Source: Escherichia phage VEc33
Sequence record: NC_048818.1
Direction: 5' to 3' (one strand)
Length of the DNA stretch: 64,000 nt
In this document: one piece after another, positions 9,360 through 17,740 of the stretch
Layout: each line of letters starts with the position of its first letter
How positions within the stretch are numbered: the first letter of the stretch is position 1
Program-made: the position numbers and the translations under genes
Notes under the pieces: generated by a model
What the model saw: only the letters and a program-made list of their open reading frames with translations
Told to the model about the DNA's origin: nothing
Databases searched by the model: none

Positions 9360-11234
9360 ATGAATCGCAATGATGAACTAAAATACAAGGAAATGCAGTC
9401 CTTGATTAGAAACTGCAAAGAAATTATTGAGGGTTCTGCTGATGAAGAGCTTCTCTTTAATAATGCGAATAAACCCTCTGAGCGTTTCCCTACACAAAGG
9501 GATATGCTCGCAGGGGAATTGAGTAAATATCTGATTCTAGAAGAAATGCCAGTTCAGATTCGAAATGCTCATATGATTGGAGATATTCATTTCCATGATG
9601 CTGATTACGCTGCTTTAGGCATGACTAACTGTTGCCTAGTAGCCCTGGAAGATATGTTGAAAAATGGTATGAAAGTTGGTAATGCTGAAATTAGCACTCC
9701 AAACTCTATCACTACTGCGGCTGCTATTACAGCTCAGATTATCACACAGGTTAGCTCCCATCAGTATGGGGGTACTTCTGTAGACCGATTAGATGAAGTA
9801 TTGGCTCCTTATGTTCGTAAGTCTTATGATAAGAATCATGCGTTTGCAAAACGTTGGACTAAGGATGAAGCCAAAGCATCAGTAATGGCTACGGAGATGA
9901 CTGAAAAAGAAGTCTATGATGCTTGTCAGGGTCTAGAGTATGAAATCAATACGATGTTCAACTCTAATGGTCAGAGTCCATTTATTACCTTTGGTTTTGG
10001 TCTAGGAACTTCTTGGGAAGCACGTCTAGTACAGAAAGCAATACTGAAAGTACGTATGGATGGCTTAGGTATCAATAAACGTACAGCTATCTTTCCGAAA
10101 CTGGTGTTTGTTCTGCGTGATGGCGTAAATATGAAGCCAGGGGATGTTAATTATGACATCAAGAAGTTAGCTATGAAATGTACTGCTGAACGTATGTATC
10201 CAGACTATATCAGCTATGATAAGGTTGTGGAAGTTACTGGTGACTATAAAGTTTCTATGGGCTGCCGTTCATTCCTAGCTGCTGCAGAAGATGGTGAAAC
10301 TGCCGGTCGTAATAACTTAGGTGTTGTTTCTGTAAACTTGCCTAGAATTGCTATCGAAGCTGAAGGGAATATTGATCTATTCTTTGATTTGCTTGAGCTA
10401 CGTGTTGATACAGCGTTAAAAGCGTTGGAGTGGAGAGTTGATCGCTTAAAATACATTCAAGCTAAAGCCGCGCCCATCCTCTATATGTCAGGAGCCTTTG
10501 GGTTACGCTTAGGGCCTGATGAATATGTATTCGATCATTTCTATAACCGTGCTTCTGTATCTCTGGGGTATATTGGTTGCCATGAAATGCTACAGTTCAT
10601 GTTTGGCAAAGATGTAGACACAATGTCCGAGACTTGCATCAAGTTTGTTCAGCGTGTATTGCAGTACATGCGAGATAGAGTCGATCAGAAGAAGGAAGAG
10701 ACTAAGTTAGGTTATAGCCTGTATGCTACACCGTCAGAGTCCCTATGCGATCGGTTTTGTCGTCTAGACCGTGAATATTTCCCGGAGCATGAAGATATTC
10801 TGTCTAAAGGATACTACACTAACTCGCACCACCTTGATGTAGAACGCAAAGTTGCTCCCAATGTGAAATTTGATTATGAATCTAATTTTACTCCGATTGC
10901 TTCTGGTGGGTGCATTTCCTATGTAGAACTACCAGATATGAAACGATTCCCAGATGCACTGGAATGGGTTATTAATTATGCTGCTAGTAAAGTTCATTAC
11001 TTCGGTATTAATACTCCAGTGGATTCTTGTAGTAAATGTGGATTCTTAGGTGAAACAATAGCATCTGAAGATGGATTTAAGTGCCCTATCTGTGGTAATC
11101 ATGACCCCGAAACTCTTGAAGTAACTCGTCGAGTTTGTGGGTATCTTGGAAATCCGGGTGCTCGTCCATTTAACCCCGGCAAACAGCACGAGGTGATGGG
11201 CAGAGTGAAACATCAGGATATTCGAGCTAAATAA
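9360..11234 (+). CDS. nrdD: Anaerobic ribonucleotide reductase (class III), glycyl-radical enzyme
   Basis: C-terminal glycyl radical motif RVCGYLG, Cys cluster CSKCG...CPICG; 624 aa. Confidence 0.9.
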   Translation: MNRNDELKYKEMQSLIRNCKEIIEGSADEELLFNNANKPSERFPTQRDMLAGELSKYLILEEMPVQIRNAHMIGDIHFHDADYAALGMTNCCLVALEDMLKNGMKVGNAEISTPNSITTAAAITAQIITQVSSHQYGGTSVDRLDEVLAPYVRKSYDKNHAFAKRWTKDEAKASVMATEMTEKEVYDACQGLEYEINTMFNSNGQSPFITFGFGLGTSWEARLVQKAILKVRMDGLGINKRTAIFPKLVFVLRDGVNMKPGDVNYDIKKLAMKCTAERMYPDYISYDKVVEVTGDYKVSMGCRSFLAAAEDGETAGRNNLGVVSVNLPRIAIEAEGNIDLFFDLLELRVDTALKALEWRVDRLKYIQAKAAPILYMSGAFGLRLGPDEYVFDHFYNRASVSLGYIGCHEMLQFMFGKDVDTMSETCIKFVQRVLQYMRDRVDQKKEETKLGYSLYATPSESLCDRFCRLDREYFPEHEDILSKGYYTNSHHLDVERKVAPNVKFDYESNFTPIASGGCISYVELPDMKRFPDALEWVINYAASKVHYFGINTPVDSCSKCGFLGETIASEDGFKCPICGNHDPETLEVTRRVCGYLGNPGARPFNPGKQHEVMGRVKHQDIRAK

Positions 11235-11241
11235 GCTAATC

Positions 11242-11275
11242 AGCCGGGTTGCTAGTCGACCTGGCTTTTATTTTA
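11242..11275 (+). terminator. Rho-independent terminator after nrdD
   Basis: 8 bp stem AGCCGGGT/ACCTGGCT (one G-U) followed by TTTTATTTTATTT. Confidence 0.6.
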
Positions 11276-11837: not shown

Positions 11838-12000
11838 TCCAGAAAACATGCTTATTGAGCAATGGAACTTTGGTTATAATGCTGGTGTAGCTACTTGTAT
11901 TGCTAGATTGGATACGCTTATTAAGCAAGAAAAGGTACGCCCTGAGGAAGCAATTTTACTCCGAAATATTATCGAAGGATTTAAGCAAGGAATCGTATAG
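11806..12000 (+). CDS. Hypothetical small protein (64 aa); internal start of ORF-track 11722..12000
   Basis: ATG at 11806 preceded by GGAGGAGA SD; overlaps the end of the upstream ORF. Confidence 0.4.
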   Translation: MDFLNQNLKSNPENMLIEQWNFGYNAGVATCIARLDTLIKQEKVRPEEAILLRNIIEGFKQGIV

Positions 12001-12836
12001 TGCGTAGATTAATTATTATTAGCGGTGCAGGTTTGAGTGTTGAAAGTGGTGTACGAGCTTTTCGTACTGATACTGCTAGTGGTAAAGCATTGTGGGATGA
12101 TTATGATCTAGAAGAAGTATGTAATATTCATGCCTTTCGTGGTAATTTTTATCATAAAACCCATATGTTTTACAACAAACGTCGTGAAGAGCTAAAAACT
12201 GTTGAACCCAATCTTGCACATTTGCGTATTGGTGAATGGTATAAACAATATCCAGGTCAAGTAGTAAACTTGACTACCAACGTTGATGACCTTATTGAGC
12301 GTGCTGGCGTTCCACATAGTGACATTCTGCACATTCACGGATATTTAAAAGAGGTTGTTGTAGCTGATAGCTACAATAGTAGCAATAAACGGATTATTGA
12401 TGTAGGGTATAATTCTATTGATCCAGATGATTATAAATGGGTTAAACCTAATGTAATCTTCTTTGGAGAACATGCTCCTGCATACGCAGAAATGTATAAT
12501 GTTTTTGATGGTATTACCAGTCAAGATATGATCATTGTGGTTGGTTGCTCTAATCAAGTAATTAACTTCTACTGGGAATTATTTCCTGTTCTTAATTTGA
12601 CTGCTGCCAAACTAATGGTAGTTAACTACTATGATAGTGCCATAGCAGCAGAGCCAGGCTATCAAGGTATGACTCGTAGTGAGATGTACCAACTGGAAGA
12701 TCGTGGTATTCCTTACTGGAGTAATGGTGCGGTAGATGCTTTTAGTGACCCTGATTTTATTGCTCGTGTGGAAGCCCATTTAGAGGGTAGACCTTATGTG
12801 CCGGAGAGAAGGGGAAACAGATATGTCCATAGTTAA
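12000..12836 (+). CDS. Sir2-family (sirtuin-like) NAD-dependent enzyme, no zinc-ribbon cysteines
   Basis: GTG start overlapping upstream stop. Motifs GAGLSVESGVRAFR, NLTTNVDDLIERAG, HIHG, VIFFGE, VVGCSNQV match the Sir2 catalytic core; the CxxC...CxxC Zn module is absent. Confidence 0.75.
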   Translation: MRRLIIISGAGLSVESGVRAFRTDTASGKALWDDYDLEEVCNIHAFRGNFYHKTHMFYNKRREELKTVEPNLAHLRIGEWYKQYPGQVVNLTTNVDDLIERAGVPHSDILHIHGYLKEVVVADSYNSSNKRIIDVGYNSIDPDDYKWVKPNVIFFGEHAPAYAEMYNVFDGITSQDMIIVVGCSNQVINFYWELFPVLNLTAAKLMVVNYYDSAIAAEPGYQGMTRSEMYQLEDRGIPYWSNGAVDAFSDPDFIARVEAHLEGRPYVPERRGNRYVHS

Positions 12837-13005
12837 ATCTGTTTATACACATCCCGATGATATATTTGTATGGGCGGACGGTAGTTGGTGCTATCGCTGT
12901 GAGCTATGGGAAATGGACTATAAATCCGATGATTATGGTGTCATATATGTTGATACGGTTGAGTATGATACGTTCTTAGAAAGGGACAAAAATGGAAATA
13001 AGTAA
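12823..13005 (+). CDS. Hypothetical small protein (60 aa)
   Basis: ATG 12823 with GGGGAAAC SD; in frame with ORF-track start 12796. Confidence 0.4.
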   Translation: MSIVKSVYTHPDDIFVWADGSWCYRCELWEMDYKSDDYGVIYVDTVEYDTFLERDKNGNK

Positions 13006-13498
13006 TACTCCAATTATTTTTCTAGATATTGATGGGGTGCTCAACTCGAGCATCTCCCATCACCATGCACCTGATGATGAAAAGATTTTCTTTGGAAGTG
13101 ACTGGGTTTTTAAACCGCTTCTCAAGGCTTTTCAGGATTTTATTCGTCCTTCTCCAATAATGATTGTTGGGGTATCTTCATGGTTCTCTGTCAGGAATGA
13201 GATGGAGAACGTTCAGATTATGACCGGATTAGATCTTATCGATCGTTTTCTTGGTACAACGGATTTTACTGGTGGTGGATTATCTAGGGGTAATTCTGTT
13301 CTTCGCTTCGTTGAAAAGCATAAGCTCAAACATTGGTGTGTGCTGGATGATGCTGGTGCTATGATGTATCAGTATCCAACGGTTATAGTCAATGGTAGAA
13401 CTGGAATAAATCTTCAAGATTTAAGAGCTGTTAGCTATATGTTAGAATTTAGTCCAGATCTTGAAATGTGTAAAGCCCTGCAACAATTTAAGGTGTAA
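12992..13498 (+). CDS. HAD-superfamily-like hydrolase (putative phosphatase/nucleotidase)
   Basis: N-terminal motif I IIFLDIDGVLNS (hhhhDxDGV) and later WCVLDDAG (hhhDD). Confidence 0.5.
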   Translation: MEISNTPIIFLDIDGVLNSSISHHHAPDDEKIFFGSDWVFKPLLKAFQDFIRPSPIMIVGVSSWFSVRNEMENVQIMTGLDLIDRFLGTTDFTGGGLSRGNSVLRFVEKHKLKHWCVLDDAGAMMYQYPTVIVNGRTGINLQDLRAVSYMLEFSPDLEMCKALQQFKV

Positions 13499-13500
13499 AT

Positions 13501-13929
13501 ATGTTCAATAATGTATTCTCTAAAGAGGCTAACCCGATATTGGTTAATTTTTGGCGTACTCTTCCAGCCAACCTGTACAATGAGGCTATTAATGCTTTGA
13601 AAATATGGTGTGAGAATAATGAAATCTCCTTTGCTTTTAAAGGTGAGATTGAAGAGGCTCCCTGTATTGGTTTAATTGTGCAGGTGGAGGATGGTCTTGA
13701 AGAGATTGTCGGCTGGAAAGAGTTGGATGAAATGGGCTTGGTTTTTGCGTTAAACTATAAGCTGTTTATGCCCAATAAACACCGTATTGTTGTTAACTAT
13801 AAAACCAATGAATCTCCTGGTTTTCAAGTTAATGAACGGTATGGTTGGTCTTACTCACCAGAAGAAGTAAATGATGGTATCCAAAAACTTCGTCGTTTTG
13901 GTTATCAAATTCCGGGTTTAACCGCCTAA
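13501..13929 (+). CDS. Hypothetical protein, paralog A of a tandem pair
   Basis: Shares PCIG, E(L/M)xxMGLxxALN(Y/F)xLF and C-terminal (Q/Y)(I/V)PGL with the next ORF. Confidence 0.6.
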   Translation: MFNNVFSKEANPILVNFWRTLPANLYNEAINALKIWCENNEISFAFKGEIEEAPCIGLIVQVEDGLEEIVGWKELDEMGLVFALNYKLFMPNKHRIVVNYKTNESPGFQVNERYGWSYSPEEVNDGIQKLRRFGYQIPGLTA

Positions 13930-13938
13930 GGGGGCACA

Positions 13939-14331
13939 ATGGAACAAGTATATTGGCGTCAGATCGACCCTAGTTTGGTGAAGCGTGCAGAGAAGCTGCT
14001 ACAACGTTGGTTGGGGGTAAGACAAGCCTCCTTCACTTTTCCGGAGCAGCAAATAGACGATCCCTGTATTGGTGTTTTCCTATCAGGCTACGCTAGGGAA
14101 TGGGAATTGGATTGGAATGAGTTGTCTGCTATGGGTTTAATTGTTGCCCTAAATTTCTCTTTGTTCCATACACGTGGTTTGGCTATATGTCGTGTGCCTG
14201 ATGACGGTTGTTCGCCCCATCTTTTACAGGTGGAAGATGATATTTGGGAGTACACTCCAGATATTCTCAAAGAAGCTAAAGAACAATTAAATCGTGCTGG
14301 GATTTATGTTCCAGGCCTGAACGATGAATGA
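13939..14331 (+). CDS. Hypothetical protein, paralog B of a tandem pair
   Basis: See paralog A; SD GGGGGCACA upstream of ATG. Confidence 0.6.
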   Translation: MEQVYWRQIDPSLVKRAEKLLQRWLGVRQASFTFPEQQIDDPCIGVFLSGYAREWELDWNELSAMGLIVALNFSLFHTRGLAICRVPDDGCSPHLLQVEDDIWEYTPDILKEAKEQLNRAGIYVPGLNDE

Positions 14332-14422
14332 GTTTTATTAGCTGAACTCTGATTACCGAGCCATTTTGACTCGGTTTTCTCTATGTTCAAAGACACTGGT
14401 AGCAGCTCCTGGAAAAATCTAC

Positions 14423-14451
14423 TTGCAGGATGCCCAAAATCTTGATATAAT
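14423..14451 (+). promoter_or_regulatory. Sigma70-type promoter (TTGCAG, 17 bp, TATAAT) opening into a ~500 bp ORF-free region
   Basis: TTGCAG 14423-14428, TATAAT 14446-14451; no SD-supported ORF until GTG 14951. Confidence 0.55.
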
Positions 14452-14950
14452 ATTTATATTGAATTGAGAGACATTAGTAAAAATTGATTTTGCTAATTTT
14501 TCTTGTTTACAATCCGCGATACGGAACAGTTAGGCTGCCCCATTAAGGGTTGTTTTAACTGTTACGTGTTAGTTTTTAAACAAATAGTTAATAGAATACT
14601 TAGCGATCTGCGTCCCGTAGGAACCCTGGTAAGGCCTCGAAGCAACCTAGATAGAGGTGGTTGTGAAGTGAGACGGGAGGAGTGAAAAACTCCGAGACGT
14701 GATTCTGTAAGTTATATTGCATCTAGTATGAGCTAGTATATGAAGCATTAGGTGAGCAAATCTGGCTTAGCGGCCATCCTCAAGGATTTGTGCGGTATAG
14801 CAAAGCAGCAGCGCAGCGTGAAAGTGGAAGTTGCCACCCCACTTCAGTATTTGCGATTAATTTGTTGAGAAATTGACAGTAACAGTTGTTCTATTCTTTC
14901 TGAATAGTCCTAAAGAAAACTTATTTCATTTCCAACACAGGAGTATTGTT

Positions 14951-17740
14951 GTGTTTTCAATCCTACAAGGTCATGCAGGATTTCATCGCGATTTAGCCAC
15001 AGGCAATTGGCGAGAAGTTAAAGCAGAAGATTATCTTTTTGCTAAAAGATTTTCCTCAAAGCATCCTGAAGGTAAACCAGCTTCAATGCCCTTCAAGTTT
15101 GATGTAATTGACGAAGTTGATCCTCAAACCCTAGTAGAAATGCTTCCCATTATGAGACGTTTAACGTCTGACCCTCATATCGTTGCGGTACGAGGTCGAT
15201 GTCTTGCACCTAAAAATAATGTGCGGCGTAAGAAGGGCAACTTTAATGTATCTAACCCAAGTCATATAATCGCAATGGATGTGGATGGTATTGTAGATAC
15301 AGGTGGTTGTAACAAGTTTGATCTTGTTGGCATGGCTCGACATATTATTAGAATGTTAAATAGTATTAGTGAGGATATGTTCCCTCTTGATGCAGGGTTT
15401 ATCGCTCATGCATCATCTTCGGCTGGGCTAAAACCAGGTATCCGAATGCACTTAATACTAGAATCTAATGTTAAAGTAACTCAGGGTCAAATCAAATTCT
15501 TATTTACATCTATCAACGAAAGTAGTAGACAAAAGTATGGCTTTGATATTGCCGACCTAGCTTATTACTCTTCCGTACAGCTTCATTATTTTGCAGATCC
15601 GTTATTTATCGATGGTATAGTAGATCCGTTTAAAGCGGAGGGTGCTTCACGTCTGGTATTTGTTAAGGGTTCTAAAGTAAATTTACCCAATAATCTGGTT
15701 GACTATGAAACAACTAGAGGAGAGTTTAAAGAGGAGTTCTACTCCTTACTCGATCAAATTAAAGGTAAAAAGGCTGCCTCTGATAAAGTAGAAGAAACCA
15801 TCAGCGAGTTAGAAGAAGCCGAGGATGGAGTGTATCTACGTATTATTCCTAAACTCTATCACAGAGCTTTAGAGGATGGTGTTGATTTTGCATGGCTAGA
15901 AAAAGAAATCCGCCCAGCCTTATCAGAATATATTGCAACTAAAGATAATAGTCGTAATATTCAAGACTACTTTAATAACGGTCGTAAACAGGCTCTGAAA
16001 GCGTTTGTTAATAATTCTAAACGCGATATACCTGATGTTTTAAAAGGTATTCCACTTAAAAAGCTAGAAACTAATTCTCTAGAAACTGATAACTTCTTGA
16101 AATTAAACACTGTACCACCAGAAGGTTATATGACTTTTGTAAAAGCAAGTCTAGGTACAGGTAAAACCACGGCAGTTGTGCGTTGGTTAGATTCAGGGGT
16201 TATTAAAGGTAATTTCTTAGCAATTACCAATACTAGAGCACTGGTATCTTCAAATGCTAAGAAATTTAGTGCAGGACAGTATGATAAGTCTGTAGATATG
16301 CTTAATTTTAAGCGTGGTGCTATTGACCGTATGTCCACAACTATTCACTCTTTGCATAAATTCAAGAGTTTTATTGGTCAAATTGACGCAATCTTTATCG
16401 ATGAATGTGATGCAGTAATGAATGACCTATTATTCGCCCCGGTTGTTAAGCAACGTCGAGAGTGTATTCAGGTTCTTCGGGATATTCTTGCAACTGCAAA
16501 AATCATTATATTATCTGATGGGGATATTAGTGCAGAAACAATTGAAGCATATGGTTCTTTGATTGAGTTTGATAAACCGGTTGCATTTTATAATCATCAC
16601 CGTAAAATGCTATCAAAAGCTCATGCTTATGAGTTTCCTGATGAATCCAGTATTTGGGTTGCACTTCAGACTTCCCTGGAGATGGGTGAGAAATCTATCC
16701 TAGTATCTGACTGTGGGCCAGATGAACTGAATGAGAAGGGCATGGCGTTGCGTCGTAATACGGGTGCGTTAGTTAAGGAAATCCATTCAAATTCTACGTC
16801 TGATGTGGATATTAGACGTATCCTGGATTACACAACTAATGAGTTAATTGACCAACAAATTGATTGCTTATTATGTAGTCCATCCGTAACGAGTGGTGTT
16901 GACTTCAACTATTTTGATAACGTATTCGTTATTACTAGAACCTCAAACCAAGCGCCAAACATGCGTTTCCAAGCAATCAGGCGCGACCGTGGTGCTCAGA
17001 ATATCTATTATTTTATTGATAAATCCACTAGTGGATTCTCCGCAGGTTCTGAACAATATAATATTGATGAAGGTTGGCTGGAGTTAGCACAGCAATTATA
17101 TGCACGTCGCAGAGAGCTGGAATCTAGGAACTATACTAGTACTTTACGTTATTACTTGCTTGATCAGGGTGCAACTATTGATATTTTCAGCGAAAGCTGG
17201 GGAACTATTGAAGGTGCTGGTAAAGAGTACACAGAAGAGCGAATCAAAGCTATACTGTATTCAACTCCTGATTATTGTGCTCCACGCCATGCAGATGCGT
17301 ATGAAGCTAAACTACTTCTTGTTCGCTATTATCATCTTGAGTCTATTAAAGATGTAACAGTTGAGCATGTTGAACAATATATCAAGGATAAACCTAATGA
17401 TCGAGCGGCATTCTTCCATAAAATGCACGAGATGTTTTGGGAAGATATTAAGAAGTGTTCAAATGTCACTATCAAACCATTCATAGAAGCTCTGAAAGGT
17501 AAGAAGAAAGATTTCTTCCTTAAAACAGGTCAGAGTGCTAACCCAAAATATGCGAGAATGTATCTTGGTATGATGGGTATTGGTAAGGATATGAACACTG
17601 AAAATATTGTAGACTGGTACAGAACCTATTGTAAAATCGAGTGTATGCCAATCCCGTATAAGTTTATGACTGATGAGGAGAAACATATGCATGATGAAGC
17701 AATGGCAGAGCTAGGTGCTAGAAATGACAGTGAAGAATAA
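14951..17740 (+). CDS. Large replication-associated protein with P-loop NTPase/helicase-like domain
   Basis: GTG start 14951 with AGGAG SD 7 nt upstream (ORF-track TTG at 14873 lacks SD). Walker A ASLGTGKTT, Walker B IFIDECD; ~400 aa N-terminal region unassigned. Confidence 0.7.
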   Translation: MFSILQGHAGFHRDLATGNWREVKAEDYLFAKRFSSKHPEGKPASMPFKFDVIDEVDPQTLVEMLPIMRRLTSDPHIVAVRGRCLAPKNNVRRKKGNFNVSNPSHIIAMDVDGIVDTGGCNKFDLVGMARHIIRMLNSISEDMFPLDAGFIAHASSSAGLKPGIRMHLILESNVKVTQGQIKFLFTSINESSRQKYGFDIADLAYYSSVQLHYFADPLFIDGIVDPFKAEGASRLVFVKGSKVNLPNNLVDYETTRGEFKEEFYSLLDQIKGKKAASDKVEETISELEEAEDGVYLRIIPKLYHRALEDGVDFAWLEKEIRPALSEYIATKDNSRNIQDYFNNGRKQALKAFVNNSKRDIPDVLKGIPLKKLETNSLETDNFLKLNTVPPEGYMTFVKASLGTGKTTAVVRWLDSGVIKGNFLAITNTRALVSSNAKKFSAGQYDKSVDMLNFKRGAIDRMSTTIHSLHKFKSFIGQIDAIFIDECDAVMNDLLFAPVVKQRRECIQVLRDILATAKIIILSDGDISAETIEAYGSLIEFDKPVAFYNHHRKMLSKAHAYEFPDESSIWVALQTSLEMGEKSILVSDCGPDELNEKGMALRRNTGALVKEIHSNSTSDVDIRRILDYTTNELIDQQIDCLLCSPSVTSGVDFNYFDNVFVITRTSNQAPNMRFQAIRRDRGAQNIYYFIDKSTSGFSAGSEQYNIDEGWLELAQQLYARRRELESRNYTSTLRYYLLDQGATIDIFSESWGTIEGAGKEYTEERIKAILYSTPDYCAPRHADAYEAKLLLVRYYHLESIKDVTVEHVEQYIKDKPNDRAAFFHKMHEMFWEDIKKCSNVTIKPFIEALKGKKKDFFLKTGQSANPKYARMYLGMMGIGKDMNTENIVDWYRTYCKIECMPIPYKFMTDEEKHMHDEAMAELGARNDSEE

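Follow-up and report, generated by a model that had tools for sequence, protein, structure and literature searches.

What do the last two genes of an early operon in Escherichia phage VEc33 do, and how are they related to each other? The window analysed here, which is the whole stretch of 64,000 nucleotides (nt) from sequence record NC_048818.1, contains two adjacent open reading frames (ORFs) on the plus strand, ORF-A at 13501–13929 (142 amino acids) and ORF-B at 13939–14331 (130 amino acids). They lie in the same frame and are separated by a gap of 9 nt. A sequence-only reading had placed the two ORFs exactly here and had described them as diverged tandem paralogues that close an operon containing a Sir2 gene. 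It was found that both proteins belong to one family, DUF7415, that their duplication is old, and that ORF-B keeps nearly the whole family signature whereas ORF-A has lost it.

Pairwise BLASTP of ORF-A against ORF-B gave an E-value of 5e-18, with 31% identity over 124 residues and one gap. This similarity is far beyond chance, so the proposed paralogy stands, and the motifs on which it had been based, PCIG, EL..MGL(V/I).ALN(Y/F).LF and (Q/Y)(I/V)PGL, were found in that order in both proteins. Both also matched the Pfam family DUF7415 (PF24187), ORF-A with 110.9 bits and ORF-B with 107.2 bits, which is about four times the curated gathering cut-off of 27 bits. The matches to phrog_2502 covered positions 2–134 of the 134-position profile for ORF-A (E = 7.1e-62) and positions 4–134 for ORF-B (E = 4.6e-60). 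The two proteins are direct members of DUF7415 and phrog_2502 and direct counterparts of T5.106 and T5.107 of phage T5, and no difference from these was seen. The pair, its family and its paralogy are therefore already known, in that one Pfam family and one PHROG common to both have been catalogued. Literature searches on DUF7415, T5.106/T5.107 and the accessions of the T5 proteins yielded nothing relevant.

The 3.6 kb around the pair was 94–97% identical to genomes of Tequintavirus (T5-like phages of the Demerecviridae); 526 phage records matched, and Escherichia phage JLBYU40 was the top match. In the T5 reference, the orthologue of ORF-A is T5.106 (YP_006934) and that of ORF-B is T5.107 (YP_006935), while a second T5 record calls them ORF098 and 'Aeh1ORF298c-like'. 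ORF-A was 98.6% identical to T5.106, and the two proteins were 93–99% identical to their T5 counterparts. A protein of Escherichia phage OSYSP (P0001) that is 100% identical to ORF-A was already public. The ratio of non-synonymous to synonymous substitution rates (dN/dS) was calculated against JLBYU40, T5 and L062, an Epseptimavirus-like T5-type contig from IMG/VR that served as a comparison, and was 0.03–0.08 for ORF-A and 0.06–0.20 for ORF-B. Because these values are low and similar to those of the neighbouring HAD phosphatase and Sir2 genes, ORF-A and ORF-B can be regarded as genuine functional coding genes under strong purifying selection.

It was found by tblastn that ORF-A matched 1033 places in 522 records, i.e. 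two per genome in ∼520 T5-like genomes, with identities of 90–100% in Tequintavirus, ∼73% in Epseptimavirus and ∼37% in Klebsiella Sugarlandvirus. The same pattern of two places per genome was obtained with ORF-B. A bit-score matrix and a neighbour-joining tree separated an A clade from a B clade. In Sugarlandvirus, where the two DUF7415 genes overlap by 4 nt, the first gene was closest to ORF-A and the second to ORF-B. Because the two Sugarlandvirus genes group in this way, the duplication is placed before the split between Markadamsvirinae and Sugarlandvirus, and it arose within Demerecviridae.

More distant Demerecviridae-like contigs carried one copy instead of two. The order in one distant T5-like contig (L075) was PhoH, a small ORF, Sir2, a single two-lobed DUF7415 gene that overlaps the Sir2 stop, and the origin-binding protein gene; in another (L078), Sir2, a small ORF and a single DUF7415 gene were followed by a gene cut by the contig end. 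By the bit-score matrix and the tree, these single copies were either intermediate between A and B or B-like. The suggestion of an old duplication retained in tandem was thus borne out by the A and B clades and by the two copies in each T5-like genome, the Sugarlandvirus pair included. The 4-nt overlap in Sugarlandvirus, together with the overlap of Sir2 and DUF7415 in L075, suggests that translation of these genes may be coupled. A few records named after other hosts, such as Listeria phage LM 4-11-1 (2.4 kb) and Campylobacter phage C15, contained near-identical T5-like or rV5-like sequence, and these are probably mislabelled or contaminant contigs.

Inspection of the two proteins indicated a common two-lobed layout. 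ORF-A consists of a disordered N-terminus (residues 1–11), a diverged N-lobe (residues ∼15–70) and a DUF7415 C-lobe (residues ∼71–118), and it ends in a C-terminal helix and a GYQIPGL tail. ORF-B has the same layout with a loop of variable length in the N-lobe (residues ∼46–56). The C-lobe is homologous to a unit of ∼55 amino acids that forms the standalone DUF7415 proteins of other phages, whose consensus is W-N-x-L-S-x-x-G-L-I-x-x-I-N-x-E-I-L-H-P-x-G-L-A-x-x-R-(D/N)-P-x-x-G-x-S-...-W-E-Y. Nearly the whole of this signature is kept in the C-lobe of ORF-B (W-N-x-L-S..GL..LN..F-H..GLA..R.P..G.SP...W-E-Y). In the C-lobe of ORF-A, the N, S, H, GLA, R, P and G positions are replaced, and the hydrophobic positions are kept. 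A profile hidden Markov model (HMM) of the unit was built from alignment A3, which contains mostly single-unit sequences plus the C-lobes of ORF-A and ORF-B. With this model the C-lobe of ORF-B gave an E-value of 6e-29, a value to be read with the inclusion of both window C-lobes in A3. The same asymmetry was observed in Sugarlandvirus, where the A-clade gene matched the model with E = 1.7e-4 and the B-clade gene with E = 9e-27.

The origin of the N-lobe was less clear-cut. Each half of each protein passed the Pfam DUF7415 threshold alone (49.9–65.1 bits), and the order of a helix followed by a beta-hairpin was similar in both halves of the AlphaFold2 models. BLASTP of the N-half against the C-half gave no match, and the unit HMMs, whether from A3 or from single-unit proteins only, failed to detect the N-half. 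Comparison of the two halves by hhalign gave a probability of 18% with shallow alignments and of 41% with deep alignments (E = 2.8e-4, collinear over 55 columns). At best, the N-lobe may be a very diverged copy of the DUF7415 unit.

The AlphaFold2 models were confident for both proteins, with a mean predicted local distance difference test score (pLDDT) of 87.7 and a predicted template modelling score (pTM) of 0.82 for ORF-A, and a pLDDT of 92.9 and a pTM of 0.86 for ORF-B. The order of elements was the same in both, namely a short strand, a helix, three strands, two helices, two strands, a long C-terminal helix and an ordered tail. Comparison of both models with solved structures gave no match, and nothing meaningful was obtained from a sequence search of the Protein Data Bank (PDB) with both proteins or from an NCBIfam search. 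The calculated isoelectric points (pI) of the window pair were 4.84 and 4.62, and the median over 166 small members of the family was 4.85, with 89% of them below pI 6. Because the family is acidic, nucleic-acid binding is disfavoured; the acidity argues against it.

To place the pair in a wider context, the family profile was searched against 1.84 billion representative proteins, which yielded 156 matches. About 20 of these were two-lobed, and most of the others were proteins of 60–110 amino acids that cover profile positions ∼56–110, i.e. the C-lobe. The standalone proteins occurred in T4-like phages and in P2-like and lambdoid prophages; they resemble the C-lobe of ORF-B and, to a lesser extent, that of ORF-A, and they share the acidic character of the T5-like pair. 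The T5-like proteins differ from them by the added N-lobe, by the C-terminal helix and tail, and by their occurrence as a pair; the helix with its G-x-x-(I/V)-P-G-L tail was restricted to two-lobed proteins and absent from single-unit members. Alignment of the C-lobe with A3, which includes both window C-lobes, gave an hhalign probability of 99.9% (E = 1e-37). Two independent checks agreed with this: the T5-like genes were retrieved by tblastn when the query was the standalone protein from Klebsiella phage JY1, whose gene lies between nrdD and nrdG, and single-unit proteins matched the two-lobed profile at positions ∼56–110. Among the matches there were also very long repeat proteins (P0054, P0065, P0088 and others) that match the profile many times over, each time across ∼30 residues in the region of its C-terminal helix. 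P0054 is a perfect tandem repeat of a unit of ∼53 amino acids; within this unit, WAFSVEMLQDGIKEAVRFGH is similar to WSYSPEEVNDGIQKLRRFGY in ORF-A. Either a genuine repeat protein or an artefact of assembly could explain P0054. As only ∼30 residues match, these long proteins were treated as spurious.

DUF7415 was also found fused to other domains. It is joined to a dATP/dGTP pyrophosphohydrolase domain (PF04447) in P0143 and P0144, to a thymidylate-kinase-like domain in P0084, and to DUF3850/ASCH in P0188; the last combination was found in reverse order in Orf91 of Yersinia phage L-413C, in which DUF7415 forms the C-terminal part. A cluster of 104 members from Klebsiella P2-like prophages joins DUF5405 (P2 Orf83 type) to DUF7415, and several further fusions involve unknown segments. 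The N-terminal domain of the L068 fusion looked MazG-like by eye, and Pfam gave no confirmation.

The gene neighbourhoods outside T5-like phages were diverse. DUF7415 lies between nrdD and nrdG in Jiaodavirus and Bragavirus, two genes past NudE in Slopekvirus and Pseudotevenvirus, and after rnlA in Aeromonas phage PX29. In Aeromonas P2-like prophages it follows gene A and has methylases and DUF3850 close by, and in those of Pseudomonas it lies between gpL and gpX; it was also found in a prophage-like contig with an integrase and a KilA-N protein. In P2-like phages (orf83, A and orf91 of Yersinia phage L-413C, L083, and IMG/VR loci L031–L047), the domain brackets the initiator gene A, being fused to an Orf83-type DUF5405 just upstream of A, as in L031–L047, or to an Orf91-type DUF3850/ASCH-like domain just downstream. 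In a census of neighbours at 26 non-redundant IMG/VR loci, whose search pattern gave too much weight to P2-like prophages, no one partner stood out as conserved; the most frequent neighbours were gpA (6), Dam methylase (5), integrase (3) and DUF3850 (2). Overall, DUF7415 looks like a small, promiscuous domain found in the early and accessory regions of phages, and its tie to nucleotide-processing proteins recurs without being exclusive. An RRFGY tail and the nrdD neighbour had suggested an NrdD 'spare part' of the glycyl-radical type (GrcA/YfiD-like), but this was rejected as no homology to NrdD was found. BLASTP of ORF-A and ORF-B against the NrdD of the window gave best E-values of 1.1 and 1.3, and neither match lay in the C-terminal region. 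Single-unit members of the family, moreover, have no such tail.

The operon that the pair closes is preceded by nrdD (9360–11234). Its upstream boundary is a plus-strand terminator found by a terminator scan at 11242–11266, where T5 annotates a terminator and an early promoter. Three small ORFs, the phage sirtuin, a further small ORF, the HAD phosphatase, ORF-A, ORF-B and a terminator then follow in this order. The sirtuin (T5.102; 12000–12836, plus strand) matched Pfam SIR2 with E = 8e-25, and the HAD phosphatase of the 'Swiss-army-knife RNA repair' type (T5.105; 12992–13498, plus strand) matched HAD_SAK_2 with E = 1.8e-20. The stop codon of the HAD gene is 2 nt ahead of the start of ORF-A. 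By reading of the sequence, a Shine-Dalgarno motif AAGGTG precedes ORF-A at 13490–13495 on the plus strand, and GGGGG at 13930–13934 precedes ORF-B on the same strand, beginning one base past the stop codon of ORF-A (13927–13929). This tight spacing is compatible with coupled translation of the two genes.

The downstream end of the operon was as the sequence-only reading had proposed. Folding identified an intrinsic terminator after ORF-B at 14355–14382 on the plus strand (ACCGAG-loop-CTCGGT, then TTTTCTC), with a folding free energy (dG) of −11.9 kcal/mol and a z-score of −2.9. This hairpin with its T-run is conserved and aligned with the terminator annotated in T5 after T5.107. A plus-strand promoter for the unit of the origin-binding protein gene was read at 14423–14451, with the −35 element TTGCAG (14423–14428), a spacer of 17 nt and the extended −10 element TGaTATAAT (14443–14451); it is identical in T5, which annotates a promoter there. 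ORF-A and ORF-B are co-transcribed and form the final pair of an early operon.

Several further observations were made in this region. The stretch between ORF-B and the origin-binding protein gene (14332–14872) varies among close relatives: an HNH endonuclease gene is inserted there in JLBYU40 (L001, 6163–6615), and several mini-ORFs are annotated there in GEC_vB_N5 (L002, 6013–6732), and the window has neither feature. The ORF of the origin-binding protein/helicase (14873–17740) has a TTG start and 955 amino acids, compared with 2787 nt and 928 amino acids in the T5 annotation; its true start is probably downstream of 14873. The synonymous substitution rate (dS) between the window and JLBYU40 differed from gene to gene, being 0.006 for Sir2, 0.18 for HAD, 0.55 for ORF-A and 0.16 for ORF-B. 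Such strongly mosaic synonymous divergence within 12000–14331 implies recent recombination breakpoints between the operon genes. In many records the T5.105 HAD gene carries the label 'Sir2 (NAD-dependent deacetylase)', so that Sir2 appears twice. The source of this mislabel is phrog_18062, a 92-position profile annotated Sir2, which matches residues 77–168 of the HAD protein in full (E = 2e-58) and the true Sir2 weakly (E = 9e-7). Pfam assigns the product of 12992–13498 to the HAD phosphatases.

The sirtuin and HAD genes offer a functional context for the pair. For the T5-like phage SP15, the sirtuin and SAK-type HAD have been predicted to form an RNA-end repair system dependent on nicotinamide adenine dinucleotide (NAD), analogous to 2′-phosphate removal by KptA, and related neighbourhoods hold tRNA ligase, cREC, a nucleotide kinase and MazG (Iyer, Burroughs, Anantharaman and Aravind 2022, PMC9503650, section 3.7.3). 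The neighbourhood is the same operon in which Sir2 and HAD_SAK_2 directly precede ORF-A and ORF-B. The passages of that section on the sirtuin and HAD make no mention of T5.106/T5.107, and the repair function they give is itself a prediction. The kinase and MazG-type partners listed there recall the domains to which DUF7415 is fused elsewhere. In all T5-like lineages seen, Sir2 was the sole constant upstream neighbour of the two-lobed DUF7415 gene or genes; HAD and NrdD were variably present, and HAD was absent in Sugarlandvirus, L075, L078 and DT57C. In the T5-like phage Bas30, NARP3, which consists of a PnuC-like transporter and a NadR-like enzyme, rebuilds NAD+ against the Sir2-HerA defence (PMC13464706), and therefore T5-like phages invest in NAD metabolism. 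With regard to the sirtuin itself, that of Tequintavirus was closer to the Sir2 of rV5-like phages (57–60% identity) than to most Epseptimavirus-type Sir2 proteins (∼52%), and the Sir2 of a few T5-sized Salmonella phages was 61% identical to the Tequintavirus protein.

Taken together, we tentatively propose that the A and B proteins form a non-catalytic heteromer that acts alongside the sirtuin, a reading that we hold to be possible and short of probable. ORF-A and ORF-B would assemble with each other. ORF-B would supply the single canonical DUF7415 binding site, and ORF-A, like both N-lobes, would serve as a degenerate structural partner. The complex would lack catalysis and bind a protein or a small nucleotide-derived ligand; as such it may be an accessory module that targets or regulates early functions involving nucleotides, NAD or RNA ends, with the adjacent phage sirtuin as its most plausible functional neighbour. 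Counted in favour were the paralogy, the presence of two copies in ∼520 genomes, the tight spacing or overlap of the genes, and the loss of the signature in ORF-A only. The purifying selection on both genes, the A and B clades with single-copy intermediates, the family acidity, the fusions to other domains (PF04447, thymidylate-kinase-like, DUF3850/ASCH and DUF5405) and the nrdD/nrdG, NudE and RnlA contexts were counted likewise, as were the constant place of Sir2 upstream of the DUF7415 genes in T5-like lineages and the published prediction for the sirtuin and HAD neighbourhood. Adjacent genes that encode an active subunit and its degenerate paralogue, which join in a heteromer, are a general pattern. 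The likeness of the pair to this pattern is by analogy, in that ORF-B keeps the polar residues and ORF-A the structural ones.

Several observations speak against this proposal. Within 6 kb of the Sir2 homologues of rV5-like and Justusliebigvirus phages (52–60% identity for both groups) and of Vibrio phage phi-ST2 (∼40%), no DUF7415 was found; the rV5-like locus has RNA ligase, cREC and Sir2 without DUF7415. Conversely, most T4-like and P2-like carriers of DUF7415 have no linked Sir2, and among Klebsiella phage records 323 contained DUF7415 compared with 131 containing this sirtuin. Phage DT57C (L082, NC_027356, 46493–47598) keeps both DUF7415 genes intact and has lost Sir2 and HAD, so that here the pair has been parted from the sirtuin and HAD genes by a deletion that arose in nature. 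In that genome a 90-amino-acid 'defective' Sir2 remnant is left, and the small ORFs and the HAD gene are missing. Membership of the pair in the predicted sirtuin/HAD repair system was thus not supported, with no such neighbourhood found beyond one virus family and the pair retained in DT57C. The Sir2 link, being synteny within one virus family, is suggestive at most. In T4-like genomes adjacency counts for little, since small genes are crowded together in the regions concerned. In addition, the conserved N, S, N, H, R, S, E and Y of the canonical unit might just as well make up the catalytic site of a dimer. A more specific version of the heteromer proposal holds that T5.106 and T5.107 adopt a fold absent among solved structures, with one canonical site, and that they either bind a molecule derived from a nucleotide or from NAD or bring the sirtuin, or other early enzymes, to a target; in this full form we regard it as rather unlikely.

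Other explanations of the pair were weighed against the same data. The sequence-only reading had suggested specificity factors such as inhibitors of host proteins. On this view each paralogue would neutralise a different host protein, e.g. an enzyme of defence or of nucleotide degradation. Inhibitors do occur among small acidic phage proteins that lack known relatives, and ORF-A and ORF-B are small acidic early proteins for which no relatives of known function or fold were found; the standalone members at accessory positions of P2-like prophages (after gene A, or between gpL and gpX) and the loop of ORF-B, whose length varies between lineages, would fit as well. However, purifying selection acts on the pair no less strongly than on the enzymes next to it and the conservation is deep, the pair is fixed in all ∼520 genomes instead of being patchy, and fusion of the domain at either terminus to enzymes or other domains would be unusual for a dedicated inhibitor. 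No supporting literature or database match was found: PADLOC-DB gave no defence-model match for ORF-A, ORF-B, Sir2, HAD or two single-unit proteins, and in the fold comparison no solved inhibitor structure resembled the models of ORF-A and ORF-B. We consider this explanation unlikely. An oligomer of DUF7415 units might also act as a sponge or sensor of an NAD/ADP-ribose derivative, a cyclic nucleotide or a deoxynucleoside triphosphate. Known phage sponges resemble DUF7415 in small size and acidity; the unit of ∼50 residues is unusually rich in conserved polar residues, it is fused to nucleotide-processing domains (PF04447, thymidylate-kinase-like and ASCH/DUF3850), and its neighbours include NudE, NrdD/NrdG and Sir2. 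The models, however, show no likeness to a solved sponge or nucleotide-binding fold, and ORF-A and both N-lobes lack the polar signature, which leaves at most one site per A/B pair; a sponge is held to be quite unlikely.

Gene order also raised the idea that DUF7415 works with phage replication initiators as an accessory factor. The origin-binding helicase gene comes directly after the T5-like gene or genes, in P2-like phages the DUF5405 or DUF3850 fusions of the domain sit on either side of initiator gene A, and gene A was the commonest neighbour family (6 of 26 non-redundant viral loci), in a census whose bias towards P2-like prophages weakens the point. In T5 the pair and the origin-binding gene are set apart by a terminator and by a promoter distinct from that of the pair, and T4-like phages and Pseudomonas P2-like prophages have the DUF7415 gene far from replication genes; a replication role is accordingly doubted and rated improbable. 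It is scarcely credible, finally, that the GenBank labels of ORF-A as an exonuclease and of ORF-B as a tail tube or tail protein are right. They rest on product names in some records, and the two paralogues bear different labels. Neither a nuclease nor a tail family was matched in Pfam, PHROGs, NCBIfam or the PDB sequences, and there was no fold match. The exonuclease candidate was rejected for want of similarity to any nuclease family or fold, and the tail candidate because, besides the missing family and fold match, its gene lies well away from the tail genes, in an early operon whose early promoter and terminator are annotated.

As a sequence finding the pair is ordinary, its genes and family having been catalogued already, and it represents a sound conserved unknown. 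What is added here is the timing of the duplication, the asymmetry of the copies and the two-lobed architecture compared with the standalone unit, together with the lack of a solved structural relative, the census of fusions and contexts, and the bounds set on a link to the sirtuin. The pair is a fixed feature of hundreds of T5-like phages, and several of these serve in phage therapy or as models in the laboratory; DUF7415 is spread over T4-like, T5-like, P2-like and lambdoid phages without a known function, a solved structure or a publication that could be found. Starting points for its function are the asymmetric canonical and degenerate duplicates, the sirtuin as neighbour in T5-like phages and the fusions to nucleotide-processing enzymes. 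If the specific heteromer proposal were true, DUF7415 would count as a new adaptor or sensor domain with a wide spread among phages, and this would explain its fusions to NTP pyrophosphohydrolase, kinase-like and ASCH-like domains.

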